DNA of 64,000 bases from Vicinamibacterales bacterium (GCA_965214865.1 CBDCCN010000004.1:2801300-2865299); one strand, 5' to 3'. Numbered from the stretch's first letter, positions 7,375 to 59,787 are shown. Translations and numbers: made by a program. Notes: a model not told the origin generated them from the letters alone.

Positions 7375-7447
7375 CGGGTCAGTTCCTCGAGTCGACCTTG
7401 AGTCCGGCTCGTGCAGCCTGTTACAGCGTGCCGTCGAATTCCGGCGC

Positions 7448-13815: not shown

Positions 13816-13851
13816 GCGGGCTGTCGGCTTCACATCAGGCCGGCAGCCCGC
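13816..13851 (+). terminator. GC-rich hairpin between DUF1552-B and the ankyrin gene (terminator or attenuator)
   Basis: GCGGGCTGTCGGC (13816-13828) pairs with GCCGGCAGCCCGC (13839-13851). This is a 13-bp stem with one G-T pair and a 10-nt loop. There is no U tract, and AAGGAG for the ankyrin gene follows. Confidence 0.35.
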
Positions 13852-15369: not shown

Positions 15370-15416
15370 GCGGCGGTAGCGCGGCGGGACCGCCGAGCCG
15401 GTGCCCCGCCGCCTAC
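15366..15416. terminator. inverted repeat spanning the convergent stops of the ankyrin-B and hepT genes
   Basis: GTAGGCGGCGG (15366-15376) is perfectly complementary to CCGCCGCCTAC (15406-15416). It covers both stop codons. Confidence 0.35.
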
Positions 15417-16284: not shown

Positions 16285-16320
16285 CAAATCCGGGGCACGA
16301 ACGTACTGTCAATGCGACCG

Positions 16321-18298: not shown

Positions 18299-18309
18299 GG
18301 GTGCCCCGG

Positions 18310-19122: not shown

Positions 19123-19126
19123 GCCA

Positions 19127-19564
19127 CTACCTCCCGAGGTAGTCGTCCTCGCTGACCGGCTCCTCCCAGCTCGTCTGCCCGCTGACGAAGGTCAGTTGCA
19201 CGACGTGCTGGTCCGGCGCGGCCCCGTGCCAGTGGACGACCCCCGGTCCGGCGTACACCGGGTTGCCCGGCTCCATGATCTGCATCGGCTCCCCGCGGAC
19301 CTGGGTGCGGCCCTGGCCCTCTTCGGCCATGATGATCTGCCAGTTGCCGTGGCTGTGCCAGTTGGACCGCACCCCGGCTTCGAACCGCAGGCGGACGGCG
19401 CGGATGTCGGAAGCGTCCGGCCGCGTCGGCGCGCCCCCGACGAAGTTGCTCTGCGCGGCGGCGAGCGTCCCGCCCGAATCGGCGGCGACGTACAGGATCC
19501 CCGTTGCGGCGAGGCAGGCCACGGCCAGGCCGAGTCGAAGCTGTCTGCGTGCTTTCGGCGTCAT
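19127..19564 (-). CDS. cupin-domain protein with signal peptide
   Basis: ATG at 19564 (MTPKARRQLRLGLAVACLAATG) with GGGAG upstream. Cupin motifs are NWHSHGNWQIIMAEEGQG...PGVVHWHGA. Confidence 0.75.
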   Translation of the reverse strand: MTPKARRQLRLGLAVACLAATGILYVAADSGGTLAAAQSNFVGGAPTRPDASDIRAVRLRFEAGVRSNWHSHGNWQIIMAEEGQGRTQVRGEPMQIMEPGNPVYAGPGVVHWHGAAPDQHVVQLTFVSGQTSWEEPVSEDDYLGR

Positions 19565-19646
19565 TTCCCCACTCCCTCGTAGATCCGGGCTGGATTCGGC
19601 CAGCACGGCGTCGTCTGCGCCGGCGCCGTTCCCTGCGGCGCGGCGC

Positions 19647-20882: not shown

Positions 20883-21068
20883 CGTCGATTGCTCCAGATT
20901 CCGATCCGTGGTTCCGCTCCCGAGAGCGCCACCATTGTACGAGCATTCGACCGGCGCCGCGAGGATCACGCCGAGACGGCGTCGCGATGGGGGGGTGGAA
21001 GAAATCCGGGAACCGATGCAGAATCACGGCGCGGGCGGCGTCCGGGTCCGGGAACCGGAGGTGGTCGC

Positions 21069-21642
21069 ATGACACCGCATGCACGAATCAAGTTGCTCGC
21101 AATGGTGGTGGTCGCAGCCCTCGCCACAGCGCCCGGCGCTGCGCAGGAGCCGGACACGAACGTCGGAGGGGACGACCTGCGCGGCGTGGTCCGCAGCCCG
21201 GGCGGTCCGGAGGCGGGCGTCTGGGTCATCGCCGAGACCGACGACCTCGACACGCTGTTCCGGAAGAACGGGCCGGAGGCGACCGGCCGGCATTGCCCGG
21301 AGGGCTGGACCGGTACCCCACGCCCGGGCCGCAGATGAAGGCGTGACCGACCCGGGCAGCGCCGACTACCACTACAATTGGGTCGATCAGTTCGACACGC
21401 TCGGGTTGGGGACCAACGTGCCGAGCGCGCCCGGGTCCGACTCGCTGCCTGGCGTTGCTCCGGGAGACCGGCGAGTGGGTGGTGCTGCGGGTGCCGTATC
21501 CGCTCGGCTTCGCGCGCGGCCTGGACGGGAGGATCGACGATCCCGGCCCCGGCCGCCACCGGGGCCGGCGGTGGGATTGAAGCCGGACCTCGCTGCTTCA
21601 CATGCCGGTGTGGGCAGCCTCGTGAACGGGAGGACGAGATGA
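21069..21642 (+). pseudogene. remnant of a large secreted protein gene (N-terminal and C-terminal pieces only, three frames)
   Basis: Signal peptide + MTPHARIKLLAMVVVAALATAPGAAQ...LRGVVRSPGGPEAGVWVIAETDDLDTLFRK then loses sense. Later pieces sit in other frames: DPGSADYHYNWVDQFDTLGLGTNVP, and RETGEWVVLRVPYPLGFARGLDGRIDDPG (stop 21578-21580). The motifs resemble 700+ aa carboxypeptidase-regulatory-like proteins of Acidobacteria (from memory only). Confidence 0.45.
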
Positions 21643-22649
21643 GCTGTCGAATGACGACCTTCGCGGGTGCGATCCTGGGGGCGGCCGCGCTCCTGCCTCT
21701 GGCGGCGGCGCCCGCCGGCGCCCAGACCGAGCCGCCGCGGACCGCCTGGGGCGCGCCCGACCTCGGAGGTGTCTGGGACTTCCGGAGCATCACCCGGATG
21801 GAGCGGCCGGAAGCGCTCGCCGACAGGGAGTTCCTGACCGCGGAGGAAGTGGCCGACCTGGAGCAGCGTGCGCTCGACCGCCTGAACGACTTCCTGGATC
21901 TGCCGGCCCAGCGCACGGAGGTGGGCGGCAACGTCGACCGGCGGCCGGACGGCGGGAACGGCTCCTACAACCACACCTGGCTCGATCAGGGGCTGGAGGC
22001 GGTCGACACGGGCCGCACGTCGCTGATCATCGACCCGCCGAACGGACGGTATCCGCCGCTCACGCCGGAGGGGCAGCGCCGCGTGGAGGCGCGCCGGGAG
22101 CACCGGCGCAACCAGCCGGCCGACTCGTGGCTGGACTTCAGCACCTACGACCGTTGCCTCCTGGGCTTCAACGCCGGGCCGCCGATGACCCCGAGCGCCT
22201 ACAACAACAACATGCAGTTGTTCCAGACGCCGGACCACGTCGCCATCGTGACCGAGATGGTGAACACCGCGCGCATCGTCCCGCTCGACGGCCGTTCCCC
22301 GCTCCCCGCCGACATGCTCCAGTGGTCGGGCGAGTCGCGCGGGCACTGGGAGGGCGACACCCTGGTCATCGAGACGACGAACTTCGATGCCCGGCGGCAG
22401 TGGCGTTCCACGACCGGCAGCATGCACCTGACCGAGCGCCTGACCCGCGTCGACGCCGAGACCCTGCTCTACCAGGCCGCCGTCGACGACCCGGAAACCT
22501 GGGAGCGCCCGTGGACGTTCGAGGTGCCGATGAAGGCGCTCGACGGCGAGAAGTGGGAATACGCCTGCCACGAAGGGCACCACTCGATGCCCCTCATGCT
22601 GGGCGGCGCGCGCGCCCTGGAGGCGAGAGAGGCCGCTGGCGGCCGGTAG
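21639..22649 (+). CDS. secreted protein of the unnamed PDLQG/WEGDTLV family, copy P1
   Basis: The ATG at 21639 follows GGGAGGA. Signal peptide is MSCRMTTFAGAILGAAALLPLAAAPAGAQ. Motifs: PRTAWGAPDLGGVW, TSLIIDPPNGRYPPLTPEG, DRCLL, YNNNMQLFQTPDHVAIV, ARIVPLDGRSPLP, WSGESRGHWEGDTLVIETTNF, ERLTR, WEYACHEGH. Confidence 0.85.
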   Translation: MSCRMTTFAGAILGAAALLPLAAAPAGAQTEPPRTAWGAPDLGGVWDFRSITRMERPEALADREFLTAEEVADLEQRALDRLNDFLDLPAQRTEVGGNVDRRPDGGNGSYNHTWLDQGLEAVDTGRTSLIIDPPNGRYPPLTPEGQRRVEARREHRRNQPADSWLDFSTYDRCLLGFNAGPPMTPSAYNNNMQLFQTPDHVAIVTEMVNTARIVPLDGRSPLPADMLQWSGESRGHWEGDTLVIETTNFDARRQWRSTTGSMHLTERLTRVDAETLLYQAAVDDPETWERPWTFEVPMKALDGEKWEYACHEGHHSMPLMLGGARALEAREAAGGR

Positions 22650-22737: not shown

Positions 22738-23700
22738 TCAGTAGATGGCCACCGGGGCGACGGTCGATCCGGTGGCGCCCTCGATCTTCAGCGGCTGCAC
22801 GACGAACGCGAACTCGTACACCCCGGCCGCGGCCAGCTCGTCGAGCCGCATCCGCTCCACCAGGTGGATGCCGTTGACCACCAGCATGATCTGGTGGATC
22901 GGCAACGAGAGCTCCGGGTCCGGGTTGGGCGAGACCTCGACCGGCTGGTTGTCGGCGCCCAGCAGCATCGGATCCCGTTCCACGAGCCACTGCGCCGCGG
23001 CTACGCCGATCCCCGGGTTGCCCGCCATGAAGCGCTCGGCGTCGGTATCCCAGAGCACGCCCCATCCGGTGTGGATCAGCACCGCGTCGCCCGGCTCCAA
23101 CCCCACGCCCTGCTGCTCCAGCGCCTGCTGCAGATCGTCCACCGTGATCTCGTACCGGTCGGGCAGCATGTCGACGCCCTTGAGCGCCGCCACGTCGATG
23201 AGCACGCCGCGCGTCATCAGCGTGCCGACGTTCTCGACGCCGAGCCGCGAGAACCCGCTCCGCGTCATGATCTCGTTCTGGTCGAAGCAGTTGTAGAGGC
23301 TGTCCCCGATGGTCTGGTGGGTGAACCCGTCGAACTGCGTGCCCACCTGGCCCATCTCGGTGACGACCAGCTCCTCGTTCGAGCCGCGGCGGTTGGAGCC
23401 GACGTTCATGCCGGTCGGCTTCATGTAGAGGTCGAAGTGCCGCGCGCCGAGCGGCATCGAGCTTCTCAGCACCTGGCCGAGCTCGACCACGCGTCCCGTC
23501 CGGATCAGGCGCGCCGCCCGGAGCACCGTGTCGGGGCCCATGTGGTTGGCGGCGCCCCGCTCGTCGCCGGCGCCCCACTTGCTGGGACAGCGCTCGTCGG
23601 GTGACGGCGGGGACCACGATTGGCCGGCGGTGGGGGTCGCCCCGACCAGTAGAACGGCGAACGAAGCAGCGGCGGCGACGGTGAAAGTGGCGGATCGCAT
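22738..23700 (-). CDS. cyclase-family protein with signal peptide, paralogue 2
   Basis: ATG at 23700 with GGAGGAAAGG upstream. Signal peptide is MRSATFTVAAAASFAVLLVGATPTAGQ. Contains MGQVGTQFDGFTHQ, GDAVLIHTGWG and a C-terminal FAFVVQPLKIEGATGSTVAPVAIY. Confidence 0.85.
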   Translation of the reverse strand: MRSATFTVAAAASFAVLLVGATPTAGQSWSPPSPDERCPSKWGAGDERGAANHMGPDTVLRAARLIRTGRVVELGQVLRSSMPLGARHFDLYMKPTGMNVGSNRRGSNEELVVTEMGQVGTQFDGFTHQTIGDSLYNCFDQNEIMTRSGFSRLGVENVGTLMTRGVLIDVAALKGVDMLPDRYEITVDDLQQALEQQGVGLEPGDAVLIHTGWGVLWDTDAERFMAGNPGIGVAAAQWLVERDPMLLGADNQPVEVSPNPDPELSLPIHQIMLVVNGIHLVERMRLDELAAAGVYEFAFVVQPLKIEGATGSTVAPVAIY

Positions 23701-35932: not shown

Positions 35933-36328
35933 CTTTGCCCCTTTCCGATTTCGTCCGCCGTCCGAGTCTCACTGGTCAATCTACTGCCGCTCCGTGGCGG
36001 ATGGTGCTCACGACCGTCCGTGTTTCGGGCGCGATGCGTCCCGCTATCTTAGCGATGGAGCCGTCGCGCCCGCAACCGGCGCCGCTGGCGGGGTGCGATG
36101 GCGGCGGGAACCGCGCAGTTCCCATCGCAAGCGGCCGTCGGGGGACGCTGGACGTATAGAGCGGCCCCGCGCCGCGGGCGTGGGAGGTCTCCGGCCCGTC
36201 GACTGGCCCGCGCGACGTTGCGCCGAAGCGCAGGTTGCGGGAAGATGCACGGAGTGCGTGTGTCCGGGGGCGGACTTCAGTGCCGGTGCATCGGGGGACG
36301 GGTCCGTGCCCCGACGGAGGTGACCATC

Positions 36329-37321
36329 ATGCAGTCTCGACGTTTCGCGACCTTGTTGCTGGTGTTGGCAGTCGTGACCTGGACGGCGCCGCCTTCTTTC
36401 GGGCAGTCCGCGGGCTCTTGGGAGCTGCCGCGCACCCCGGACGGCCGGCCCGATCTGCAGGGGGTCTGGCTCAACAACGTGGCGACGCCGCTCGAACGGC
36501 TTCCGTCCCTGGCCGGCCGTTCGCATCTGACGCGGGAGGAAGTGGCGACGCTGACGGCGCGCGCCGAGCGCATCTTCGCCAACGGACGCAGCGCGTTCAC
36601 GACGCCCGAGGGCGCGTTCCGGGCGGCGCTGCAGAACGTCGAGACCTACATCGCGTGGTCGACCAGCAGCTCGATCGGGATGGTCGACGTGACGTTCACG
36701 GACCGGACGTCGCTCGTCGTCGACCCGCCGGACGGGCGGATACCCGCACTCACCCCGGCCGCCGAGGCGCGCGAGGCGGCGGTCGACCACGGCTGGGAGT
36801 TCAAGACCGGCCCGGAAGATCTCAACAGCATCCACCGCTGCATCACGACCGGGGTGCCGCGGCTCGGCGGCAACTTCGGCGCGGGACCGTACACCTTCTA
36901 CCAGATAGTCCAGACGCCCACTCATCTGGCCTTCATCAGCGAGGCGTTCCACGACGCGCGGATCATCCCGATCGGAGACCGGCCGCACCTGCCGGAGGAC
37001 GTCCGCCAGTGGAACGGGGATTCCCGCGGCCGCTGGGAGGGCGACACGCTGGTCGTGGAGACGACCAACTTCTCGCCCAAGAGCTACTACCGCGGCGCCG
37101 CCGACGGCCTGCACCTGGTGGAGCGGTTCACGCGCACCGGGCCGGACACGCTGGCCTACCGCGTGACGCTGACCGACCCCGGGACGTGGGCCTCGTCGTG
37201 GACGGCCGAGGCGCCGCTGCAGCGGCGCGACCAGCCAATCTACGAGTTCGCCTGCCACGAGGGCAACAAGTCGATCGTGGGGATGCTGCGGACCGCCCGG
37301 CTGGAAGACGCCGGCCGCTGA
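36329..37321 (+). CDS. PDLQG/WEGDTLV family, copy P2
   Basis: The ATG at 36329 follows GGAGGTGA. N-terminus is MQSRRFATLLLVLAVVTWTAPPSFGQ. Motifs: PRTPDGRPDLQGVW, TSLVVDPPDGRIPALTP, HRCI, YQIVQTPTHLAFISE, ARIIPIGDRPHLP, WNGDSRGRWEGDTLVVETTNF, ERFTR, YEFACHEGN. Confidence 0.85.
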   Translation: MQSRRFATLLLVLAVVTWTAPPSFGQSAGSWELPRTPDGRPDLQGVWLNNVATPLERLPSLAGRSHLTREEVATLTARAERIFANGRSAFTTPEGAFRAALQNVETYIAWSTSSSIGMVDVTFTDRTSLVVDPPDGRIPALTPAAEAREAAVDHGWEFKTGPEDLNSIHRCITTGVPRLGGNFGAGPYTFYQIVQTPTHLAFISEAFHDARIIPIGDRPHLPEDVRQWNGDSRGRWEGDTLVVETTNFSPKSYYRGAADGLHLVERFTRTGPDTLAYRVTLTDPGTWASSWTAEAPLQRRDQPIYEFACHEGNKSIVGMLRTARLEDAGR

Positions 37322-41393: not shown

Positions 41394-41676
41394 GTGCGGA
41401 GCCACTCATTCACAAAGGGACGCGGTGCGCTGCGAAGCGCGCGAACACGGTGTGCCGGCGCGATGGCGGGCGTGACCTGATTCGAACCGGCGATCTCTGC
41501 GCTGACAACGCAGCGTCTTGACCACTTGACCACACGCCCGGAACTCGTCGCTGTACCCCCCTCGTTCGGCCGCGCGGCAGCCGTCGGGGCCATGGTCCGA
41601 TAATGATACCAGCGACGGCGTCCGACGGCGAAGGTGTGCCGGCGCCGGTTTGCTCGCGGCGTTCGGGACCGCGGTT

Positions 41677-43226: not shown

Positions 43227-44303
43227 ATGAGGCGGAGACACGTCCTGCTCGGAGCGGCGGTCGCAACGGCGGCGGCGATGACGATGGCGCCGGTCCCGGC
43301 GTCCGGTCAGTCGGCGGACGAGTGGTCGATGCCCCGAACTCCCTGGGGCCACCCGGACCTGCAGGGCTACTGGACGAGCTCGACCTACACGCCGCTGGAG
43401 CGGCCCGACAACCTCGGCGACCGGGCGTTTCTCTCGGAGGAGGAGCTCGCCGCGGCGAACGAGATCCTGACCGCCGAGGGAGTCGATCCGCTGCGTGCGC
43501 GCAGTTTCCTGGCCGGCGCGACCGAAGAGGAGCGGCTCGAACGGACGCGGCAGACGCAGGAGAACATCCACTACGACAACTCGATCTGGCTGCGCGAGAA
43601 TCGGCCGCGGCAGCTCACGACCCGGCGCACGTCGCTGATCGTGGACCCGCAGAACGGCAAGATCCCGCCGCTCATCCCGTCCGCGCAGGAGCGCGAGGCG
43701 CTGCGGCGGGCCGAGAGCCGCTGGCTGGTCTACAACATCTCGCCGCAGTCCTTCGACAGCCACCAGACCCGGACGCTGCAGGAGCGCTGCCTGGTGTGGC
43801 GCCACGAGGGGCCGCCGATGCTGCCCCCCTCCTACAACGACCTGATGCAGATCCTGCAGACCGAGGACTACGTGGTCGTCATGCAGGAGATGCGGGAGAA
43901 CGACGCGCGGATCATTCCCCTCGACGGCCGGCCGCACCTGCCGCCGGGCATGCGGGAATGGTCGGGCGACTCGCGGGGCCGGTGGGAGGGCGACACCCTG
44001 GTGGTCGAGTCCATCAACTTCAGCGAGAAGGTGCACTTCAACGGCTCGAGCACCGGGCTGCACGTCGTCGAGCGCTTCACGCGGGTCGACGACGAGAACA
44101 TCCGCTACGAGTTCACCGTCACCGATCCGACCACCTGGGCGCGGCCCTGGAGCGTCGAGTATCCGCTGATGCAGCGGGAAGGGCCGCTCTACGAGTACGC
44201 CTGCCACGAGGGCAATCACGACGCCAGGCACATCCTGGAAGTGGCGCGGAACCTCGACCGGGCGGCGGCCGCCGAGGCGTCCGCGGCCGGCGAGTCCAGG
44301 TAG
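43227..44303 (+). CDS. PDLQG/WEGDTLV family, copy P5
   Basis: GGAGGG RBS. N-terminus is MRRRHVLLGAAVATAAAMTMAPVPASGQ. Motifs: PRTPWGHPDLQGYW, TSLIVDPQNGKIPPLIP, ERCL, YNDLMQILQTEDYVVVMQE, ARIIPLDGRPHLP, WSGDSRGRWEGDTLVVESINF, ERFTR, YEYACHEGN. Confidence 0.9.
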   Translation: MRRRHVLLGAAVATAAAMTMAPVPASGQSADEWSMPRTPWGHPDLQGYWTSSTYTPLERPDNLGDRAFLSEEELAAANEILTAEGVDPLRARSFLAGATEEERLERTRQTQENIHYDNSIWLRENRPRQLTTRRTSLIVDPQNGKIPPLIPSAQEREALRRAESRWLVYNISPQSFDSHQTRTLQERCLVWRHEGPPMLPPSYNDLMQILQTEDYVVVMQEMRENDARIIPLDGRPHLPPGMREWSGDSRGRWEGDTLVVESINFSEKVHFNGSSTGLHVVERFTRVDDENIRYEFTVTDPTTWARPWSVEYPLMQREGPLYEYACHEGNHDARHILEVARNLDRAAAAEASAAGESR

Positions 44304-49848: not shown

Positions 49849-50823
49849 TTACCGGGCTTCTTCCGCGTCCTCGGCCCGGCCGCCCGCGAGAATGCCCTCC
49901 ATCCCGAGGTTGCCCTCGTGGCAGGCGTACTCGTACATCACCTCGGACGAGAGGCTGAACGGGTAGGCGACCGTCCAGGACCGCGTGTACATCTGCGGAT
50001 CGTGGACCTCCACCTCGTACTCGAGCGTCCCGGGGCCGACGCGGGTGAACCGCTCGACGAGCATCATGTCCTCACCGGAGCCGTCGCGCGAGTTGAAGGC
50101 CGACCAGGGTTGCAGCGCGCTCACCCGGTGATCGAGATTCGTGGTCACGACCACGAGCGTGTCGCCCTCCCAGTGGCCGCGCGAGTCGCCGTTCCACTGG
50201 CCGATGTCGTCCGCCAGCGGCGGGCGTCCGTCGAGCGGCACCACGCGCACCTCGTGCACCTGCTCCAGCAGCATCACGACGTGGTCCGGCGTCTGGAAGA
50301 CCTGCATGTTGTTGTTGTAGGAGCGCGGGAACATGGCGTTGGGCATCCCGCCGCGGGTCACGCAGCGCTCCCAGATGTGCCGGTCCTCCCACGTGTCATC
50401 GCCGCGCGGCTGGCTGATGCGGGCCTTCTGTCCCTCCGGGGTCAGCGGCGGGAAGCGGCCGTTCGGCGGATCGACCAGCATCGACGTGCGGTTCGTCCGG
50501 GCGCCGCGCTCCATCCAGAAGTTGTTGTAGGCGCCCACGTTGCCCCCGGCGGCGGTGCGCCGGGCGTCGGCGAGCAGGAGCTGCTGGTTGCGCTCCTCGG
50601 TCGCGCGCCGAATCTGCGCGACCTCCTCGTCGCTCAGGGTCGCGCGGCCCTGGTGCTCGTCCGGCCGCTCCATCGGCGTGGCCCCGGACGAGCTCCAGAT
50701 GCCCTGCAGGTCCGGGTGGCCCCACGGGGTGCGGTAATCGTCCGCCGACTGGGCGGCCGCCATGCCCGGTACAACCAGCACCAGAACGGGAATCGCGAGA
50801 AGATGGAACCGTCGAGCACTCAT
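49849..50823 (-). CDS. PDLQG/WEGDTLV family, copy P6
   Basis: ATG at 50823 with AAGGAGG upstream. N-terminus is MSARRFHLLAIPVLVLVVPGMAAAQ. Motifs: YRTPWGHPDLQGIW, TSMLVDPPNGRFPPLTPEG, ERCV, YNNNMQVFQTPDHVVML, VRVVPLDGRPPL, WNGDSRGHWEGDTLVVVTTNL, ERFTR, YEYACHEGN. Confidence 0.9.
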   Translation of the reverse strand: MSARRFHLLAIPVLVLVVPGMAAAQSADDYRTPWGHPDLQGIWSSSGATPMERPDEHQGRATLSDEEVAQIRRATEERNQQLLLADARRTAAGGNVGAYNNFWMERGARTNRTSMLVDPPNGRFPPLTPEGQKARISQPRGDDTWEDRHIWERCVTRGGMPNAMFPRSYNNNMQVFQTPDHVVMLLEQVHEVRVVPLDGRPPLADDIGQWNGDSRGHWEGDTLVVVTTNLDHRVSALQPWSAFNSRDGSGEDMMLVERFTRVGPGTLEYEVEVHDPQMYTRSWTVAYPFSLSSEVMYEYACHEGNLGMEGILAGGRAEDAEEAR

Positions 50824-51110
50824 CTGAAACCTCCTTCGGGAGCACGGGAACGCGGATTCGGCAGCTTCCGATCGGAGTAACGTGGCACAGGCGGCGCCCA
50901 GGGTCAAGATCTTCACCCGGATTCAGTGAAAAGCTGCCGTCGATGTATCCTCGACGCGATGTTCACCGCGGAAGCTTCCATGGCGCGACACGTGGTGATC
51001 CTCGCCGCCTTCCACGTCGCTTTCGGCGCGGCGCCTCTTCGCACCGCACGCTGCGGCGCGCCGAGTCGCGCGCGTCGGCGTGAGTTCTACACTACGCGAG
51101 GAGGGGTGAA

Positions 51111-52118
51111 ATGAAGACATGGTCGACCGGCATGCTCGTCGTCGGCGCCCTGGCGGTGGCTCTCGCCCTGGCGGGGCGGCCTCCGGCGTCGGCCCGGGAA
51201 TCGTCCGCGCCCCCGCTCGTGAGCCAGGAGCAGTTCGACCGCTGGCTCGTCGAGCTCTCCAACTGGGGCCGCTGGGGACCGGACGACGAGCTGGGCGCGT
51301 TCAATCTCATCACGCCGGCCCGGCGCGCCGCGGCGGCGGCGCTGGTCACCGAGGGCTTCACGGTGTCGCTGGCGTCGAACGCCCAGAACTACGAGAGCGC
51401 CGACGTGCCCTGCCCGGTCGAGTGGGAGATGGTGCGCGCCACGCGCCGGGGGGCCAGCGACCGGATCGCCTACCCGTGCATCCACGGTCCCGGCACCACG
51501 CACCTGGATGCGTTCGCCCACGTGTTCTTCGACGGCAAGATGTGGAACGGGTACGACGTCGACGGGCTGGTGACGATGGGCGGCGGCGCCGCCAAGAACT
51601 CCATCATGACCATGAAGAACGGCATCGTCACGCGCGGCGTCCTCTACGACATCCCGCGCCTGAAAGGCGTGCCCTGGTTGGAGCCGGGAACGCGCATCAC
51701 GGTCGAGGACCTGGAGGCGTGGGAGGAGATGGCCGGCGTGAAGGCCGGTCCCGGCGATGCCTTCCTCATTCGCTGGGGGCGCTGGGCCCGGCAGGACGCA
51801 CTCGGCCCGTTCGACACCGGCCTCGAGGCGGCCGGCCTCGACAACAACGTGATCCCGTGGCTGAAGGAGCGTGACGTGGCGGTGGCGGGTTGGGAGACGC
51901 CCGGCTATGCGCCGCAGCCGGAAGGTGACCTCCCGCGCACCGCGCTGCACAACTTCGCGCTGACGATTCTCGGGATCCAGGTGCTCGACCGCGCGGACTT
52001 CCAGGCCCTGGCCAACGCCGCGGCGGAACGCAACCGCTGGGAGTTCATGGTGACCATCGCGCCGCTGCCGATTCCGAACGGCACCGGCTCGCCGGTCAAC
52101 CCCATCGCCATGTTCTGA
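51111..52118 (+). CDS. cyclase-family protein with signal peptide, paralogue 3
   Basis: GAGGAGGGG RBS. Signal peptide is MKTWSTGMLVVGALAVALALAG. Contains SNWGRWGPDDELGAFNLITPARRAAAAALVTEG, IHGPGTTHLDAFAHVF, GDAFLIRWGRW and a C-terminal MVTIAPLPIPNGTGSPVNPIAMF. Confidence 0.9.
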   Translation: MKTWSTGMLVVGALAVALALAGRPPASARESSAPPLVSQEQFDRWLVELSNWGRWGPDDELGAFNLITPARRAAAAALVTEGFTVSLASNAQNYESADVPCPVEWEMVRATRRGASDRIAYPCIHGPGTTHLDAFAHVFFDGKMWNGYDVDGLVTMGGGAAKNSIMTMKNGIVTRGVLYDIPRLKGVPWLEPGTRITVEDLEAWEEMAGVKAGPGDAFLIRWGRWARQDALGPFDTGLEAAGLDNNVIPWLKERDVAVAGWETPGYAPQPEGDLPRTALHNFALTILGIQVLDRADFQALANAAAERNRWEFMVTIAPLPIPNGTGSPVNPIAMF

Positions 52119-52430: not shown

Positions 52431-53813
52431 TCAGTTCGTGGCGCTCGCGACCCCCGACAGCTCCTGGATCTGCTCGCCGGTGCTGTCGCCGAACTGCTCC
52501 GTCGGCACCCCCAGCGAGTTCAGCAGCGTCAGGTGCAGGTTGGTCAGCCGCTGGGTTCCCTCCGCGTACTGCACGTGCCGGCCGCCCTGGACGCGGCCCG
52601 CGCCGCCGCCCGCCAGCAGGATCGGCAGGTTGCGGATATCGTGCCGGTTGCCTTCGCTGATGGCGCTGCCGTACAGGATGACGACGTTGTCCAAGAGCGA
52701 GCCGTCGCCGTCCGGCGTCTCCGCGAGCCGGTCCAGGTAGTAGTTGAACAGCGACGTGTGGTACGCGTTGATCTTCCGCAGGGCGGCGATCTTCTGCTCG
52801 TCCCCCCCGTGGTGCGAGATGGGGTGGTGCGAGTCGGAGACGCCGATCTGCGGATAGGTCGCGCCGCTCTGCTCGCGGCCGACCTGGAACGTGATGATGC
52901 GGGTGGTGTCGGTTTGCAGCGCGAGCGTCTGCATGTCGAACATCAGCCGCGCGTGCTCGTCGTAGCTGACCGGGATGCCGGCCGGCGAATCCACCAGCGG
53001 CAGCTCGCGCCCGCGCGTCTCCGCGTTCTGGATCCGCCGCTCGATCTCGCGCACGGAATCGACGTACTCGCCGAGCTTCAGGCGGTCGCGGCGCCCGAGG
53101 TCGCCCTCCAGGGAATGCACCTTGTCGAGCACCGAGTCGATGATGCTGCCCTGCCGGCGCAGGCGGGACTTCCGCACCGCCGGGTCGGTGCTCTCGACGC
53201 TGCCGAAGAGCCGCTCGAAGACCACGCGCGGGTTCGCCTCGATCGGCAGGGGGGTCGTGGGGCTGCTCCAGGCCAGCCGGTTCTGGTAGGCGCAACTGAA
53301 GCCGACGTCGCAGGTGCCGACCCCGTTGACCGTGTCGGTGCCTTCGAGGCCGAGCTCCAGCGACGGCAGCGGCGTCTCCTGCCCGATGGTCCGGGCCAGG
53401 ATCTGGTCCATCGACGTGCCGAGCTGCAGGCTGGAGCTGCTGGTCGTGCGCAAGGGCTCCACCCCGGTCATGAACGCTCCGGCCGGCTTGGCGTGGGCGC
53501 CCGAGTTGCCGGTGCGCGACATGGCCCCGGTGTTGTCGAGGCCGCTGAGCACCAGCAGGTGATTCCGGTGCGCCTCGAGCGGTTTCAGCGTGGGAGTGAA
53601 CTCGAAGCCGGTTCCCTCCGTCGCCGGGGTCCATCCCGCCATGATGATGCCGTTGGGCACGTAGACGGTGCCGAAACGGGCGATCGGCTTCGCCGCGGTC
53701 TTCGACAGGGCGGTGAGCGCCGGCACCATCCCGTCGAGGAGCGGCAACGCCAGCGTGGCGCCGATGCCGCGCAGCACGGTCCGGCGAGGAACGGCCTTCT
53801 TCACGATGATCAT
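52431..53813 (-). CDS. DUF1552-family protein with TAT-type signal (pair C)
   Basis: The ATG at 53813 overlaps the upstream stop as ATGA (53810-53813). N-terminus is MIIVKKAVPRRTVLRGIGATLALPLLDGM. HHPISHH is present. Colinear with 12429..13775. Confidence 0.9.
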   Translation of the reverse strand: MIIVKKAVPRRTVLRGIGATLALPLLDGMVPALTALSKTAAKPIARFGTVYVPNGIIMAGWTPATEGTGFEFTPTLKPLEAHRNHLLVLSGLDNTGAMSRTGNSGAHAKPAGAFMTGVEPLRTTSSSSLQLGTSMDQILARTIGQETPLPSLELGLEGTDTVNGVGTCDVGFSCAYQNRLAWSSPTTPLPIEANPRVVFERLFGSVESTDPAVRKSRLRRQGSIIDSVLDKVHSLEGDLGRRDRLKLGEYVDSVREIERRIQNAETRGRELPLVDSPAGIPVSYDEHARLMFDMQTLALQTDTTRIITFQVGREQSGATYPQIGVSDSHHPISHHGGDEQKIAALRKINAYHTSLFNYYLDRLAETPDGDGSLLDNVVILYGSAISEGNRHDIRNLPILLAGGGAGRVQGGRHVQYAEGTQRLTNLHLTLLNSLGVPTEQFGDSTGEQIQELSGVASATN

Positions 53814-56293
53814 GACTCTGACCTCCGCATGAGGAACGGTGTGCTCTTGACCACGGACGATACGAGGGCCGACCAGGTGAGCTCGCCGGGAGCCGTCTGC
53901 CGGCTGATCTGCCGGATCACCGGCATGTCGTAGTGCTCGAGGGTGCGTCCGAGGGCGTACGTCAGCAGTTTCTCGGTGACAGTCTCGACGAACTGGTCCT
54001 CCCGCTCCAGGATCACGTTCCGCAGCCCGGCCAGTCCGTGCAGCTCGGTGCCGTCGATCAGGGTGCCCGACGCGTCGATCGGGATCCCGGTGTCGAACGG
54101 CGTGCCGCCGCCGCTGGTGGCGCGGAAGCGGCCGATCGCGTCGAACTCCTCGAGCGCGAATCCGAGGGGGTCGATGGTGTTGTGGCAACTCGCGCAGATC
54201 GCGTTGGTGCGGTGCGTCTCGAGCCGCTCGCGGACCGAGCGGGCCACGCCGCCTTCGTTCACGCTCGGCAGGCTCGGCACGTCGGGCGGCGCCGGCGACG
54301 GAGGCGTGCCGAGGACGTTTTCCAGCAGCCAGACCCCGCGCACGACGGGCGACGTGCGGTTGGCGTACGACGTGATGGTGAGCAGGCTGGCGTGCCCGAG
54401 GATCCCGCCGCGGGTGTCGTCGGGATAGTTCACCCGCCGGAAGTGCACACCGTGCACGTCCGGGATGCCGTAGTGGCGCGCCAGACGCTCGTTGACGAAG
54501 GTGTAGTCGGCCCGCAGGGCGTTGACCACCGGGCGGTCCTCCCGCAGCTCGTTTTCCAGGAAGAGCTGGGTCTCCCGCCACATCGCTTCGCGCAGGTTCT
54601 CGTCGAACGCGGTATAGGTGGCCGTGTCCGGCGTTGCGTTGCGCAGCTTGCGGAGCTGCAGCCACTGGCCCGCGAAGTTCTCGACCAGCGCCGTCGAGCG
54701 GCGATCGGCCAGCATGCGCTCGATCTGGCGGTCGAGCACCGCCGGCTCGCTCAGTCGGCCCGCGGCCGCGAGGTCCAGCAGCTCGTCGTCGGGGATGCTG
54801 CTCCACAGGAAGAAGGACAGGCGCGAGGCCAGCTCCAGATCGCCGATGCGGTACGGCGCGCCGGGAGGGACGTCCGGCGGATCGGTCTCGATGCGGAAGA
54901 GGAACTCCGGATCCACCAGAAGCCGCTCCACCGCAGCCTGGATGCCGGCGTCGAAGGCGCCCTCGTTGCGGCCGTCGCGATAGAAGGGGAGCAGCGTCTC
55001 GACGTCCGCGTCGGTGGTCGGCCGGCGATAGGCCTGACGCGCCAGACGCGAGAGGATCTCCGTCGCGCATGCTTCCTCACCGGCCGCGCCGCCGGTCGGC
55101 TCGCACACGAACAGGCGATCCCGGCCCGGCAGCCCGGCCGCGCCGCTCGCGTTGTAGGGGCCGATGATCTGCACCTCGGAGACGCCCGGGTAGCCTTCCT
55201 GGAACTCGTTCTGCCCGTACGAGTACGTCGAGCGGTCGACCGGCAGCGGCAGAATCCCCTCCGGCAGCGCCGGGCGCCGGTGGAAGGAGAGGCCGACCAC
55301 ATGCCGGCCGGCGGTGACCGGCGTGCGGACCTCCAGCCCCTCGTCGGCGTGCAGGGCGTACAGCTCCCATTCCGGGAAGGACCGCGAGTCGTAGATGTCT
55401 TCGAACTTGCCGGCGTACCCCATCGGCGGACGCTGGCCCCGCTCCCAGTCGCGGCCCACCGTGAAGCCGCCCACGCGCTCGCCGTCCACCCGCACGTCGA
55501 GCTCGTGCGGCCGGCCGAGACCGCGCACGTAGCCGTACTCCTGCTTGCGCAGGCTGACGCGGATGATGTACTCGCCGTCGACCGGGAAGTGGTGCTCGAC
55601 CGCGACGCCGCCGCGCGACCCGAACGGCAGCTCGTCGCTGACGGGGCCGTCCTGGTCCAGCGCCCCGTGCACCGGATAGACTTCTGCCACCGCACGCAGG
55701 CTCGTGTCGCCCACGACGAGCTGGCTGATGCGGCGCGCCGCGGCCAGATACCGCTCGATCAGGGTCGGCGACACGGACAGCACGTCCGCGATGTTGTCGA
55801 AGCCTTCCTGCTCGTCGTCGGCCGGCAGCAGGGCGTTGACGTCGATTTCGAGGCCGAAAATGTCGCGGATGGCGTTGGCGTACTCCGCCCGGTTGAGGCG
55901 GTGGACGGCGGGCCGTCCGGGATCGGGGTTCTCGAGTCCCGCCCGGTCGAGCCCGGTCTCCAGCCACTCGATGAACTCGTGGGTCGCGGCGGCGGCGGGT
56001 CGCGGCCGGCCGGCCGGCGGCATCGCGTTGGCTCGCAGCCGGCGGATCACGTGCTCCCAGGTGGCTGCGTTCGTCTCCAGGTGCGCGACGTCCGGCGTGT
56101 CGAGGGCCAGCCCCGCGGTCAGCGTGCGCCGGTTGTGGCAGGCGACGCAGTACCGGTCGAGCAGGGCCCTTGCTTCCGCGGTGCCGGTTCCGGCTTCGTC
56201 TTGCGGGGCGGGTCGGGGCTCCGCGTGCAGGTCGAGCTGCGCCGCGCCGATCAGGGCCGCCAGCCCCACGCCTGCGAGTGTCCAGCGTGCCAT
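53810..56293 (-). CDS. PSCyt/PSD-type di-heme cytochrome-like protein (DUF1592/DUF1588 family), pair C
   Basis: ATG at 56293 with GGAGG upstream (MARWTLAGVGLAALIGAAQ). Heme motifs are CVACH (LDRYCVACHNRR) and NAICASCHNTIDPLGFALEEFDAIGRFR. The 1482-aa track ORF reads through the ankyrin gene region in another sense and was trimmed. Confidence 0.9.
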   Translation of the reverse strand: MARWTLAGVGLAALIGAAQLDLHAEPRPAPQDEAGTGTAEARALLDRYCVACHNRRTLTAGLALDTPDVAHLETNAATWEHVIRRLRANAMPPAGRPRPAAAATHEFIEWLETGLDRAGLENPDPGRPAVHRLNRAEYANAIRDIFGLEIDVNALLPADDEQEGFDNIADVLSVSPTLIERYLAAARRISQLVVGDTSLRAVAEVYPVHGALDQDGPVSDELPFGSRGGVAVEHHFPVDGEYIIRVSLRKQEYGYVRGLGRPHELDVRVDGERVGGFTVGRDWERGQRPPMGYAGKFEDIYDSRSFPEWELYALHADEGLEVRTPVTAGRHVVGLSFHRRPALPEGILPLPVDRSTYSYGQNEFQEGYPGVSEVQIIGPYNASGAAGLPGRDRLFVCEPTGGAAGEEACATEILSRLARQAYRRPTTDADVETLLPFYRDGRNEGAFDAGIQAAVERLLVDPEFLFRIETDPPDVPPGAPYRIGDLELASRLSFFLWSSIPDDELLDLAAAGRLSEPAVLDRQIERMLADRRSTALVENFAGQWLQLRKLRNATPDTATYTAFDENLREAMWRETQLFLENELREDRPVVNALRADYTFVNERLARHYGIPDVHGVHFRRVNYPDDTRGGILGHASLLTITSYANRTSPVVRGVWLLENVLGTPPSPAPPDVPSLPSVNEGGVARSVRERLETHRTNAICASCHNTIDPLGFALEEFDAIGRFRATSGGGTPFDTGIPIDASGTLIDGTELHGLAGLRNVILEREDQFVETVTEKLLTYALGRTLEHYDMPVIRQISRQTAPGELTWSALVSSVVKSTPFLMRRSES

Positions 56294-56364
56294 CGTTGCG
56301 CCTCCGTGAAAAGCCCTTCGCTTCGTTTCCGGCGCCGGGCTGGTGTCTGCTCCGGCGGTTCGCG

Positions 56365-57810
56365 TCAGTCCCGGTTCGCCATCCGCAGGAGATGGCGCTG
56401 CAGCAGATCGCGCGGTGTCGTTCCGTCCTCGCTCTTCCTGTCCAGATCGGCTCCGAGGCCGACCAGGAAGTCGACGACGCTCGTGAATCCGTACCGCGCG
56501 GCGGCATGCAGGGCGGTCTCGCCCGCCCGGATCGTCCCGTGCACGAGCTCGCCGGCCCCCGCGTCGACGGCGGCCTTGACGGTCTCCAGCACGCGTTCCT
56601 CGTCGCTCCACTGGGCGGTGACCAGTTCCGGCGCGATCAGCCGGCTGCGGCGCGTGGTGCTGCGGCTCAGGCCGAGTCCCACCGCCGCCATCAGCGCCGT
56701 CGTGCCGTCCTCGGTGCGCACGAGCGGGTCCGCCCCGGCCGCGGCGAGCATCCGGGCGATCTCCGGCTCCAGGTACTTTATTGCCAGCAGGAACGGCGTG
56801 GCGCCCTTTTCCCTGAGCGTGAAGACGAACTCGTACGTCCAGCGCGGCACCGGCGTGCTGCGTGTGAGGCGGGCGTTCGGGTCCGCCCCCCGGGCCAGCA
56901 GCATTCTCACCAGGGGCCGGTCGGCGCGCAGGACCGCCGCGTGCAGCGCGTTGTAACCGGCCCCGTTCGCGTCGGGATCGGCGCCGCGGGCGAGCAGGAA
57001 TTCCGCGAGTCGCGGATGGCCGCTCATGGTCGCCAGCACCAGCGCGCTGTTGCCGTCCGCGCCGGTCTCGTTGACGTCCGCCCCCGCGTTCAGCAGGCGG
57101 CGGGCGGACGCGACGTCGCCGTGGCGCGCGGCGAACAGCAGCGGCGTGAAGCCGCCGGCGTCGAAGTGGGTGGCGCCGGCCGGGCTGGTGGTGCTGCGCA
57201 GGCCGGTGCCGCGGAACTGTCGCCGGGTGATGGTGCGGGCGTCGACCGCCGCGCCGTGCTCCAGCAGCACCCGCGTGACGTCGGGCTGGAGGTGGGCCGC
57301 GGCCCACATCAGGGCGGTCTGCCCGTTCTCCGGCTCGGTCGCGTCGACGTCGGCGCCGTGCTCGATCAGCGCCTCCACCGCCGCCGGGTCGCCCGTCGCC
57401 GTGCAGCGCATCAGGACCGTCTCGCCCGCGAGAAGCCCGATGTCGGCGTCCGCGCCGGCGGCCAGAAGCTGCCGTACGACCTCGGTGTTGCGGCTGGCGC
57501 AGGCGACCCACAGCGGCGTGGCGCCCAGCTCGTTCGCCGCGTCGACGTGCGCCCCGGCCTCGATCAGCCGGTTCACCGTTCCCAGGTCGTTCCAGTGCGC
57601 CGCCCAGTGCAGCGCCGTCGCGCCGTCGCCCTGCGGGGTGTTGACGTCGATGTCCCGGTCCAGCAGGATGCCGACCGTGGCCCAGTCGCGGTTCTTCGCC
57701 GCGTCGACGATCCGGCGGTCGGAACTGGCGGCGGCCGGGCCTGCCGCCCACAGGCTGAACAGCACTCCGGCCGCGAACCGCGTACACGGATGCCGCAAGG
57801 TCACAAGCAT
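56365..57810 (-). CDS. secreted ankyrin-repeat protein (paralogue of 13876..15369)
   Basis: N-terminus is MLVTLRHPCTRFAAGVLFSLWAAGPAAA. The ankyrin repeats are colinear with the B copy (ATALHWAAHWNDLGTVNRLIEAGAHVD, GQTALMWAAAHLQ...). It ends 71 nt upstream of the pair C heme protein. Confidence 0.9.
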   Translation of the reverse strand: MLVTLRHPCTRFAAGVLFSLWAAGPAAASSDRRIVDAAKNRDWATVGILLDRDIDVNTPQGDGATALHWAAHWNDLGTVNRLIEAGAHVDAANELGATPLWVACASRNTEVVRQLLAAGADADIGLLAGETVLMRCTATGDPAAVEALIEHGADVDATEPENGQTALMWAAAHLQPDVTRVLLEHGAAVDARTITRRQFRGTGLRSTTSPAGATHFDAGGFTPLLFAARHGDVASARRLLNAGADVNETGADGNSALVLATMSGHPRLAEFLLARGADPDANGAGYNALHAAVLRADRPLVRMLLARGADPNARLTRSTPVPRWTYEFVFTLREKGATPFLLAIKYLEPEIARMLAAAGADPLVRTEDGTTALMAAVGLGLSRSTTRRSRLIAPELVTAQWSDEERVLETVKAAVDAGAGELVHGTIRAGETALHAAARYGFTSVVDFLVGLGADLDRKSEDGTTPRDLLQRHLLRMANRD

Positions 57811-58175
57811 CCGTCATGATAGCGCCGTGCGGATCTCGATCCAACCATTTTCGCGCCGTCAATCGGACATTTCTCACCCGCGAGAGGAGCGCTTCATGGC
57901 ATCCGGACTCAATCGCCGTCGGCTCGTGACGTTTGTGGGCTCGACGCACGGGGACGTTACGCCGGCGGGTCCCTGTACGCGGGTGACACGAGCCGCTACG
58001 CCGTGTGCACGGAGAACGGCGCCGAGCTGCTGCCCCTCGAGCCGCTGCTCGACGGGCCCCCGCGGGACTGAACGCCGGCGCGCAGAAGGCCACGCGGGCC
58101 GAGTGCGGGCGGCGGCGCTGCCGAAAGACGGGAGCTCGTCGGTCGCCGCGTCGCGTACCTCGATCGCGAGCGGCT

Positions 58176-58376
58176 TCAGGAAGGGTCGCTGCCGGAAGAC
58201 GGGATCTTGCGGCCCATGACGACCGCGACCACCAGGTGCAGCGTTCCATCGAGTGCATCGACCCGGCCGGTCAGCCGGTCCACCTTGCTGTTGACCACCA
58301 GCACGCCGACCGCGCTGACGAGCGAGAGCAGAGCCGTGAGGACATCGAGCACCGTAGCGTCCATACGTTCCATCAT
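58176..58376 (-). CDS. hypothetical small membrane protein
   Basis: MMERMDATVLDVLTALLSLVSAVGVLVVNSKVDRLTGRVDALDGTLHLVVAVVMGRK.. has G/C-ending codons in most positions. There is no SD and the local region has lower GC. Confidence 0.3.
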   Translation of the reverse strand: MMERMDATVLDVLTALLSLVSAVGVLVVNSKVDRLTGRVDALDGTLHLVVAVVMGRKIPSSGSDPS

Positions 58377-58519
58377 AAGACACAAGACGATTCAAGAGTC
58401 GGAGAACGGTCCGGGCGGCGCGGCGTTGCCTTCGGCGGCGATGCTGCCAGCCGGGGCCAGGCGGACGTCGGCCGACCGCGATCGCCCGACGGATCGCGGT
58501 CGGACCGTTGTGCGAGCGG

Positions 58520-59578
58520 CTACGGACCTTCGCTGGCTTCGGCCTCCTCGGCCCGCGACCCGCTCAACATGTTGAACATCCCGTAGTTGCCCTCGTGGCA
58601 CGCGAACTCGAACATCGGCTGGTGCTGGCGCGCATAGGGCAGGGCGCCCGACCAGGGCCTGGTCCAGGTCTCCGGATCGTCGATGGTGAACGTGTAGTCG
58701 AGCGTGTCGGGCCCGGTGCGCGTGAAGCGCTCGGTCACCGTCGCCGACTCGCTCAGCTTGCCGCGCGACAGCGCGTGCTCGGGGCGGCTCCAGCGCCGAA
58801 TGAAGGGCTCGCGCAGATTGGTGGTTTCGACCACCAGGGTGTCACCCTCCCAGCGGCCGCGCGAGCTGCCGGCGAACTGGCGGATGCCGTCCGGCAGGTG
58901 GGGCCGATCGTCGAGATAGACGACCCGCAGATCGTGAATGTGCTCCTGCAGGATCGCGACGTGGTCGGCTGTCTGGAAGAAGTGGAAGTTGTTGTTGTAG
59001 CCGGTCGGGATCGACGGGATCCCACGGTACCAGAGGCAGCGCTCGCTCAGGCCCATGTCCTCCGGACCGTCGGCGGGAACGACGCCGTTCTGCGCGTCGG
59101 CCAGGCGGCGCGACTCGGGCGACGTTATCCGGGCGAGCGCCTCCGGGGTCAGCGGGGGCAACCGGCCGTTCTCCGGATCGGTGATGATCGACGTGCGGTT
59201 GGTGCCGACCACCGACGTGTTCTGTTCCGTCCAGTAGCTGTTGTACGCGCCGACGTTGCCGCCCACCGGGAGCGGCTCGGTGCGCACCTCGCTCGGCGCG
59301 TTCTCGCGGTCCACGCGGGCCTGCGCCTGCCGCTCGAGCGCCGCCGCTTCCTCCGGGCTGAGAAATGCCTGCTCCGCGAGGTTCTCCGGGCGCTCGAGCG
59401 GCGTGATGGTGCCGTTGTTCCAGATCGCCTGGATGTCCGGATGGCCCCACGGCGTGCGCGGCGCCGTCCAGTCCGCGTCCGGCGCCTGGACCTGCGCCTC
59501 GACCGCCGCCGGGGCCAGGGCAAGCAGCGCAAGCACGGCCGCCCGCACTGCCGGCAACGTGAAACATCGTTGGCTCAT
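58520..59578 (-). CDS. PDLQG/WEGDTLV family, copy P7
   Basis: ATG at 59578 with GAGGAGG upstream. N-terminus is MSQRCFTLPAVRAAVLALLALAPAAVEAQ. Motifs: PRTPWGHPDIQAIW, TSIITDPENGRLPPLTPEA, ERCL, YNNNFHFFQTADHVAILQE, LRVVYLDDRPHLP, FAGSSRGRWEGDTLVVETTNL, ERFTR, FEFACHEGN. Confidence 0.9.
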   Translation of the reverse strand: MSQRCFTLPAVRAAVLALLALAPAAVEAQVQAPDADWTAPRTPWGHPDIQAIWNNGTITPLERPENLAEQAFLSPEEAAALERQAQARVDRENAPSEVRTEPLPVGGNVGAYNSYWTEQNTSVVGTNRTSIITDPENGRLPPLTPEALARITSPESRRLADAQNGVVPADGPEDMGLSERCLWYRGIPSIPTGYNNNFHFFQTADHVAILQEHIHDLRVVYLDDRPHLPDGIRQFAGSSRGRWEGDTLVVETTNLREPFIRRWSRPEHALSRGKLSESATVTERFTRTGPDTLDYTFTIDDPETWTRPWSGALPYARQHQPMFEFACHEGNYGMFNMLSGSRAEEAEASEGP

Positions 59579-59787
59579 CTCAACCTCCTCGCACATGCAG
59601 CGGAACGTTCACCCCGCCGTCGATCTCCCCCGGGACAAGTGTGCCACAAGAGCGATGCGTCCGTCCGGGGGCGAGGCTGCTGTTCCGCCGATGTCGTCAC
59701 CGGTGCGATACGAGCGGCGCGGAGCGCGGGCGCGAGGCCGGCGAGGGCGGTCGCTCAGGACGACCGCGACAATTGCTGCGGCAAACG

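Follow-up and report, generated by a model that had tools for sequence, protein, structure and literature searches.

A 64-kb stretch of the genome of a Vicinamibacterales bacterium (GCA_965214865.1, CBDCCN010000004.1:2801300-2865299) was analysed. Hereafter this whole stretch is called the window; all coordinates refer to it, and its G+C content is 70%. The window contains three gene pairs, A, B, and C, each encoding a DUF1592 protein and a DUF1552 protein, which is a known conserved gene pair of unknown function (PMC5615132). In pairs B and C, a third gene encoding an exported ankyrin-repeat protein was found beside the pair, and this triad is a newly described three-gene variant of the known pair. 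At the least, the three genes constitute a single selectively maintained unit, the products of which are destined for the periplasm. The genes of the two triads and of pair A are as follows.

56365-57810, minus strand: ANK-C, 481 amino acids (aa), first gene of triad C; Pfam Ank/Ank_2, E ~1e-58.
53810-56293, minus strand: DUF1592-C, 827-aa long-form PSCyt3/PSD protein; it starts with a signal peptide and contains two haem c motifs (CxxCH).
55079-55696, minus strand: insert domain of DUF1592-C (INS), residues 200-405, a predicted beta-sandwich between PSD3 and PSD5.
56135-56149 and 54182-54196, minus strand: CxxCH motifs of DUF1592-C (C49-H53 and C700-H704, respectively).
52431-53813, minus strand: DUF1552-C, 460 aa, with the N-terminus PRRTVLRG and an HPISHH motif; Pfam HXXSHH, E = 4e-98.
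10000-12432, plus strand: DUF1592-B, 810-aa long form, with INS at approximately 10621-11181 and CxxCH motifs at 10168-10182 and 12067-12081.
12429-13775, plus strand: DUF1552-B, 448 aa, with PRRTFLRG and HPTSHH.
13816-13851, plus strand: GC-rich stem-loop inside the 100-nt spacer ahead of ANK-B.
13876-15369, plus strand: ANK-B, 497-aa ankyrin-repeat protein (Pfam Ank/Ank_2, E ~1e-58) with an export signal, last gene of triad B.
7448-9487, minus strand: DUF1592-A, 679 aa, short form lacking INS; used as an internal control because no ankyrin gene accompanies it.
6004-7374, minus strand: DUF1552-A, 456 aa, partner of DUF1592-A, with HALSHY instead of HxxSHH.

The initial annotation had described both triads from the DNA alone, and the gene coordinates and Pfam matches confirmed their places and spacers: DUF1592-C starts 71 nt past the stop codon of ANK-C, and ANK-B lies 100 nt downstream of DUF1552-B. 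In both pairs B and C, the DUF1592 and DUF1552 genes share an ATGA start/stop overlap, and pair A (6004-9487) consists of the two genes without an ankyrin gene. All three pairs fit the Pfam definition of the family, namely a PSD3-PSD5-PSD4(DUF1592)-PSCyt3(DUF1588)-PSD2 protein followed directly on the same strand by a HXXSHH/DUF1552 protein. Promoter and terminator scans gave nothing at either triad, and an Rfam scan of the window gave a single match, a tRNA gene at 41467-41539 (minus strand).

The ankyrin proteins were well above the Pfam Ank/Ank_2 cut-offs of 21-27 bits (189-193 bits for ANK-C and 172-195 bits for ANK-B), and a profile of the family matched ankyrin and designed ankyrin-repeat protein (DARPin) structures with E down to 1e-126. 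As had been claimed, the two proteins are colinear paralogues; they align over the full length at 37% identity (E = 6e-64) and have GQTALMWAA in common. Among the best 120 database matches, the orthologues of ANK-C were ~480 aa long and 63-86% identical, and those of ANK-B were ~495 aa long and 68-91% identical; acidobacterial assemblies were the source throughout. Several contigs bear one ANK-B-type and one ANK-C-type protein. Because each has its own set of orthologues, ANK-B and ANK-C are members of two old clades and not a recent duplicate pair. The genome loci examined are written L001, L002, and so on, and neighbouring genes were counted over 164 of them. Two ANK-C-type loci, L001 and L002 (71% and 63% identity), retain the order ANK>DUF1592>DUF1552, and the triad in L002 sits among transposases, with unrelated flanks. 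The ANK-B-type locus L003 retains DUF1592>DUF1552>ANK. In L004, a genome carries a further ANK-B-type gene, its second, and there no pair is close by.

The neighbourhood survey suggested in the initial annotation was carried out in both directions. In the ankyrin-anchored scan, one genome per species was searched with two peptide patterns taken from the alignment of ANK-B/ANK-C-type proteins, and the loci were read in six frames with hidden Markov models (HMMs) built from the proteins of the window and L001-L004. At least 597 ankyrin-family relatives were found. The best 80 of these loci came mostly from Vicinamibacterales, and also from Bryobacterales, Terriglobia, one Gemmatimonadetes metagenome-assembled genome (MAG), and four gammaproteobacterial MAGs. 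In these 80 loci, 73 of 87 complete ankyrin-family genes (84%) lay within 700 nt of a DUF1592 and DUF1552 pair, whereas ~1.7% would be adjacent by chance, given how densely ankyrin-free pairs occur in these loci (1.5 Mb in total). Among the other 14 genes, three had a pair 1.5-9 kb away and eleven had no pair in the flanks available. The DUF1552-anchored scan was carried out on metagenome contigs with an alignment headed by the ankyrin-less A-type protein, and it gave 80 loci, of which three held A-type orthologues and the other 77 held relatives with 32-39% identity. An ankyrin gene was adjacent to 53 pairs in these 80 loci, a count that gives no estimate for the DUF1552 family as a whole, since the peptide patterns were drawn from a B/C-dominated alignment and the sample is therefore biased to that subfamily. 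Furthermore, in two look-ups starting at DUF1592 proteins, the Pfam annotation supplied with the collection placed an Ank protein next to the pair both times. Over all loci, 117 of 133 complete ankyrin-family genes adjoin a pair, and the triad is present in at least 117 loci. The arrangements observed over all loci were as follows.

1592>1552>ANK: 73.
Divergent ANK / 1592>1552: 26.
ANK>1592>1552: 24.
Convergent: 5.

In the ankyrin-last triads, the median spacer was 40 nt and some genes overlapped, which fits one transcript. When 103 complete triads were clustered by DUF1592, 24 groups were obtained, each of mostly fixed gene order; the group of triad C is entirely ankyrin-first and that of triad B entirely ankyrin-last. 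Triads were found in Vicinamibacterales, Bryobacterales, Terriglobia, Gemmatimonadota, and Gammaproteobacteria, with the four orders distributed across at least 20 clades. The linkage could be functionally meaningless if the ankyrin gene were a chance neighbour of an ancestral pair that was copied together with it. Indeed, triads are often tandemly clustered (L037, L064, L070, L103, L108, and the window itself) and have clearly spread by segmental duplication. However, such hitchhiking is hard to reconcile with a linkage that persists in four orders and orientations, between unrelated flanks, across several phyla, and at divergence to 30-40% identity. In addition, of the 75 pairs in the ankyrin-anchored loci, only 5 were without an ankyrin gene. 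We therefore rejected hitchhiking without function on the survey data and regard it as highly unlikely. The view of the initial annotation, that the permuted order reflects a functional link rather than chance, was thus borne out by the number of loci, the four orders, and the range of phyla, together with the co-divergence described next.

Identity matrices of the 103 complete triads were strongly correlated with one another: r = 0.85 for ANK and DUF1592, r = 0.78 for ANK and DUF1552, and r = 0.87 for DUF1592 and DUF1552 (Mantel p ≤ 0.001). The nearest neighbour of a triad by DUF1592 was also its nearest by ANK in 61% of the triads and was in the top three in 83%. Since several paralogous triads are present per genome, this co-divergence exceeds shared species history, and the ankyrin protein stays with its own pair.

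The DUF1592 proteins of the window each contain two CxxCH motifs, both of which are invariant in 62 long-form relatives, and a weak Pfam match to Cytochrome_CBB3/PSCyt1 was observed at the N-terminal motif. The earlier designation of these proteins as di-heme is supported by these motifs, and together with the export signal they predict a di-haem c-type cytochrome. DUF1592-B was 49% identical to DUF1592-C and 42% identical to DUF1592-A. The interval between PSD3 and PSD5 is ~190-206 residues in DUF1592-B and DUF1592-C, whereas it is 27 residues in DUF1592-A. The presence of INS was then scored with an HMM of the insert, the evaluable pairs being the DUF1552-anchored set and those of the window. 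An ankyrin gene accompanied 47 of 48 INS-positive pairs and none of the seven INS-negative pairs (Fisher p = 4e-8, which overstates the independence of the cases because the association probably arose once in an ancestor and was then retained). In the lone INS-positive exception, L140, a second DUF1552 gene lies between the pair and the ankyrin gene, which is found one gene further. Some ankyrin-less cytochromes are equally long and carry a different insert; therefore, the correlate is the INS domain and not the length. The CxxGxxC loop of DUF1552, used as a control and alternative correlate, did not track the ankyrin gene. These results suggest that the ankyrin linkage is specific to a "long-form" DUF1592 subfamily with a putative ~190-aa beta-sandwich insert, a relationship newly found here, and pair A would lack an ankyrin gene because the link is confined to the INS-bearing subfamily.

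The structure of DUF1592-C was modelled with AlphaFold2 using 94 sequences. The model had a predicted local distance difference test (pLDDT) score of 86.7 and a predicted template modelling (pTM) score of 0.88; its body was largely helical, and a confidently modelled beta-sandwich, with strands at residues 202-384, corresponded to the insert. No fold in the PDB matched the model at E ≤ 0.001 by Foldseek, and sequence searches of the PDB and NCBIfam likewise gave no match for DUF1592. The best weak matches to the insert were carbohydrate-binding modules (CBM35/36/6; E = 5e-3 to 5e-2, template modelling (TM) score ~0.5 on the target), and C1q-like sandwiches were also found. The insert gave no Pfam match. 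A search with the insert sequence gave 1566 cluster representatives at E ≤ 0.001, and its position was ~200-410 in every full-length match; from this fixed place, the insert is apparently confined to the DUF1592 family. Accounting for the weakness of the CBM35/CBM6 likeness, the predicted fold points to a beta-sandwich of the kind used in binding modules.

An N-terminal hydrophobic, signal-like segment was present in ANK-B, ANK-C, and 131 of 133 family members, as called by a hydropathy heuristic and not by a signal-peptide predictor. The DUF1592 proteins likewise begin with a hydrophobic segment, which is followed by CxxCH, and the DUF1552 proteins carry by inspection a twin-arginine motif (PRRTVLRG, PRRTFLRG, or SRRTVLRG, then GATLALPLL). 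On account of these N-termini, the three products are expected to share one compartment. The Pfam TAT_signal match on DUF1552 was at E = 0.04 only, and in pair A only.

Exported ankyrin proteins might alternatively be "eukaryote-like" effectors that manipulate a host. Pfam ankyrin counts in symbionts have been taken as a measure of such host-association proteins (PMC8163846), and the window proteins gave weak NCBIfam matches to Legionella Ank effectors. The scores, however, were 20-115 bits against cut-offs of 450-1400; ANK-C reached at best 98.5 bits (with AnkH) and ANK-B 100.8 bits (with AnkY), the cut-off being 600 in both cases, and accordingly the similarity is one of repeats only. In addition, by isolate labels (nzgw79, SMAG_*, MFD*, FRAM_RAS, and MED-G28) many of its members are in MAGs of groundwater, soil, and open-sea origin. 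The family is tightly linked to periplasmic redox genes, its proteins have Sec-type N-termini, and no secretion-system genes were found near the triads in the loci read. A host-effector role was thus rejected on the survey data, and we consider it extremely improbable. As a regular partner of an envelope pair, the ankyrin protein most likely acts in the bacterial envelope and not on a host.

The DUF1552 proteins matched Pfam HXXSHH/DUF1552 with E of 1e-95 to 1e-98, and no sequence match was obtained in the PDB, NCBIfam, or other Pfam families. With a low-confidence model of DUF1552-C as the query, nearly all of the best 40 Foldseek matches were members of the alkaline-phosphatase superfamily (LtaS, sulfatases, alkaline phosphatase, iPGM, and ENPP), all of them non-significant (best E = 0.011, TM score 0.35-0.38). 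As a lead only, DUF1552 is possibly a metalloenzyme of this superfamily. DUF1501 proteins are sulfatase-like, exported by twin-arginine translocation (TAT), and belong to the alkaline-phosphatase superfamily, and the weak likeness of the DUF1552 model would parallel this assignment.

We propose that the ankyrin protein is a cognate periplasmic subunit or adaptor of a long-form DUF1592/DUF1552 complex, a reading to which we give an even chance. The complex would comprise a Sec-exported di-haem c-type DUF1592/PSCyt3 cytochrome of the long form, with its ~190-aa beta-sandwich insert; a translationally coupled, TAT-exported DUF1552 partner; and a Sec-exported ankyrin-repeat protein of ~480-500 aa. 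Ankyrin repeats are protein-binding modules, and the ankyrin protein of each paralogous triad would bind its own cytochrome/DUF1552 pair via the repeat groove, with the beta-sandwich insert as the leading candidate for the docking site. Bound in this way, the ankyrin protein would serve to stabilise or assemble the complex, or else to bring a client or a redox partner to it. A periplasmic scaffold or chaperone role, as was first proposed, is hence plausible. The subunit or adaptor role is favoured because there is one ankyrin protein per paralogous triad, because the co-divergence is as tight as that within the obligate DUF1592/DUF1552 pair, and because the ankyrin protein and the insert are the fastest-evolving parts, with a median identity of 43% and 39%, respectively, against 52-55% for the rest.

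Several observations weigh against this proposal, in addition to the probable single origin of the insert correlation and the subfamily bias of the metagenome sample. About 10% of the ankyrin-family members, belonging to two or three orthologous groups, are more than 10 kb from any pair. No fusion of ANK with DUF1592 or DUF1552 was found in the loci surveyed. In a mirror-tree analysis, the partial correlation of ANK with INS given the rest of DUF1592 was 0.50, that of ANK with the rest given INS was 0.42, and that of DUF1552 with INS given the rest was 0.51; the insert was thus not singled out as the partner of the ankyrin protein. The DUF1552-C model, made from 13 sequences, was poor (pLDDT 57, pTM 0.72). 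Finally, a pyrroloquinoline quinone (PQQ) dehydrogenase gene lay within 1 kb of 7 of 16 non-triad ankyrin genes and of 8 of 117 triad ankyrin genes, which is considered further below.

Profiles of the C-terminal part of DUF1592 and of DUF1552 were also concatenated for a search, which was set aside because it gave only DUF1592 proteins and ten DUF1592-DUF1552 "fusions" (P0241-P0250). Nine of the ten were single-sequence clusters, each was on one or two contigs, and several were truncated. These chains are not taken as Rosetta-stone evidence, since a frameshift or a wrong gene call at the ATGA overlap is their probable cause.

The main rival to a lasting subunit is that the ankyrin protein is a transient maturation or cofactor-delivery factor that helps to load haem or a metal into DUF1592 or DUF1552 in the periplasm. 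This rival has a precedent in the ankyrin proteins of catalases. AnkB is needed for the activity of KatB in Pseudomonas aeruginosa and Cj1386 for that of KatA in Campylobacter jejuni, probably because these ankyrins bind haem, and an ank-katE operon is present in Leptospira (PMC7567364, citing PMC94626 and PMC4325098). Here, the ankyrin gene is likewise linked to that of a haem protein and bears an export signal. However, c-type haem is attached covalently by dedicated machinery, and a haem-delivering ankyrin is less obviously needed. The window ankyrins are ~480-500 aa with more than ten repeats and AnkB-type ankyrins are much shorter, with no sequence relationship past the repeats. If the ankyrin protein were a generic chaperone, neither a separate cognate copy for each triad nor co-divergence as tight as in the obligate pair would be expected. 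Taken together, these findings make a maturation factor unlikely.

The second rival concerns the neighbouring genes. PQQ dehydrogenases were the commonest other neighbours, being present in 46 of 164 loci (e.g. L020, L025, L048, L055, L057, and L063). When such a gene lay within 1 kb, it abutted the ankyrin gene in 22 of 26 cases, including ankyrin genes without a nearby DUF pair. In L165 and L166, the order 1592>1552>ANK>cytochrome-c-PQQ dehydrogenase was observed on one strand (L165:11536-13728). In the window, the gene below was found after pair A, at the place that an ankyrin gene occupies after pair B.

3417-5858, minus strand: fusion of a PQQ-type sugar dehydrogenase (GSDH) and CMD, 813 aa (Pfam).

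This GSDH and CMD neighbour is kept in the two closest relatives of pair A (L085:3461-4735 and L086:10048-10941); therefore, different pair subfamilies may have different third genes. Beyond ANK-B, four genes on one strand at 17276-20969 (minus strand; 2-5 kb away) encode a PQQ_2 beta-propeller (19647-20969, minus strand) and a cytochrome c of 270 aa, both 3-5 kb from ANK-B, together with a cupin and a lipocalin-like protein. From these neighbours, a periplasmic PQQ dehydrogenase might be the main partner of the ankyrin protein, which would tether it to DUF1592 as the electron acceptor; the triad would then be the acceptor side of a modular oxidation system. The higher frequency beside non-triad ankyrin genes given above also speaks for this. 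Nevertheless, for 84 of the 117 ankyrin genes in triads, the nearest 10 kb contain no PQQ dehydrogenase gene, the orphan ankyrins represent two or three orthologous groups only and thus few independent events, and the genomes may simply be rich in PQQ dehydrogenases. We therefore consider this alternative quite improbable.

An extension of the proposed subunit or adaptor role is that the long-form triads are paralogously expanded, ankyrin-scaffolded periplasmic redox machines. The haem protein and DUF1552 would be the catalytic core, with a role in catalysis or electron transfer, and the ankyrin protein and the insert would set specificity by recruiting clients such as PQQ dehydrogenases or particular substrates. 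This extension is speculative and seems unlikely in full. If true, ankyrin repeats would serve as periplasmic specificity adaptors in electron transfer, and the several triads per genome would be parallel channels.

Other genes near the triads were also recorded. A family of ~350-aa secreted proteins, termed the X family, has at least five copies in the window (58520-59596, minus strand; 49849-50916, minus strand; 43227-44303, plus strand; 36098-37321, plus strand; and 21378-22649, plus strand), two of which flank triad C. It is present in 37 of 164 loci, one of its genes (L004:11513-12556) lies directly after the orphan ankyrin gene, and no match to it was found in Pfam, NCBIfam, or the PDB. 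The X family was set aside as a fourth partner because, given this abundance, its adjacency may be chance. Between the X-family gene and ANK-C is an unusually long gap of 709 nt (57811-58519), within which a possible minus-strand open reading frame of ~65 aa with a hydrophobic stretch was noted. Three paralogous "putative cyclase" (PF04199) genes are present in the window (1618-2751, minus strand; 22738-23700, minus strand; and 51111-52118, plus strand); one of them is directly downstream of triad C, and L001, a syntenic locus, has its counterpart. L051 (2495-4012) and 11 other loci encode a protein of ~480 aa that has a CxxCH motif near its N-terminus but otherwise no Pfam domain; in half of these 12 it was less than 300 nt from a triad gene. 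Directly after ANK-B on the opposite strand, a toxin-antitoxin type pair of a HepT-like RNase and a nucleotidyltransferase (MNT) at 15413-16287 (minus strand) marks the end of triad B.

The initial annotation had also cautioned that a hairpin ahead of ANK-B could give this gene its own regulation. The stem-loop at 13816-13851 is real; it has a 15-bp stem, and the minimum free energy of the spacer between DUF1552-B and ANK-B was -50.1 kcal/mol against -37.4 ± 3.1 kcal/mol for shuffled sequences (z = -4.1). However, it has no U tract and was not flagged by the terminator scan. In L003, the corresponding spacer measures just 24 nt and the hairpin is absent, so that it is not conserved. The stem-loop is accordingly neither a canonical terminator nor a conserved element.

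The DUF1592/DUF1552 pair is among the most abundant pairs of wholly unknown function in Acidobacteriota and bacteria of the Planctomycetes-Verrucomicrobia-Chlamydiae (PVC) group. The third co-evolving component and the correlated domain described here split the family into testable subtypes. No ankyrin partner was mentioned in the literature found under the DUF and PSCyt names, for which journal coverage was incomplete, and none of the three triad proteins is represented by an NCBIfam model. The PSCyt3/DUF1592-DUF1552 pair of Planctomycetes-Verrucomicrobia, one of the "planctomycete-specific cytochrome" systems, has the same Pfam architecture, PSD3-PSD5-PSD4-PSCyt3-PSD2 beside HXXSHH. Compared with this pair, the window triads add an ankyrin gene and the predicted beta-sandwich domain, constituting a distinct long form, and their hosts are mainly Acidobacteriota. 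A parallel pair is PSCyt1/PSCyt2 (DUF1549/DUF1553)-DUF1501, which also combines a large PSCyt/PSD protein with an exported protein of unknown function (PMC5615132), although the Pfam families differ and the pair is not known to be linked to an ankyrin gene. Cbp2D of Cellvibrio japonicus is an extracytoplasmic, multi-domain c-type cytochrome with a DUF1587/PSD3 domain that can reduce lytic polysaccharide monooxygenases, and it has been studied as an electron donor to this carbohydrate-active redox enzyme (PMC8981238). It has the DUF1587 domain alone in common with the DUF1592 proteins and has neither a DUF1552 partner nor an ankyrin protein.

The Ank effectors of sponge symbionts and Legionella likewise combine ankyrin repeats with an export signal. 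In contrast to them, the window family is found in a periplasmic redox context and includes lineages labelled as coming from free-living sources. Exported ankyrins in environmental and symbiont genomes are hence not to be counted automatically as host effectors. The closest functional analogues are AnkB-KatB, Cj1386-KatA, and ank-katE, in which a bacterial ankyrin gene likewise lies beside that of a haem protein and is needed for the function of that protein in the envelope (PMC7567364). The partner of the AnkB type is a catalase, whereas it is a predicted c-type cytochrome together with DUF1552 here; no homology extends past the repeats, and the analogy is functional only. No catalase gene was found adjacent to the two triads of the window, nor in those related loci for which the annotation was inspected. 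If binding is confirmed, the ankyrins of the long-form triads would join the AnkB-KatB type as another and far larger class of ankyrins that partner haem proteins in the periplasm.

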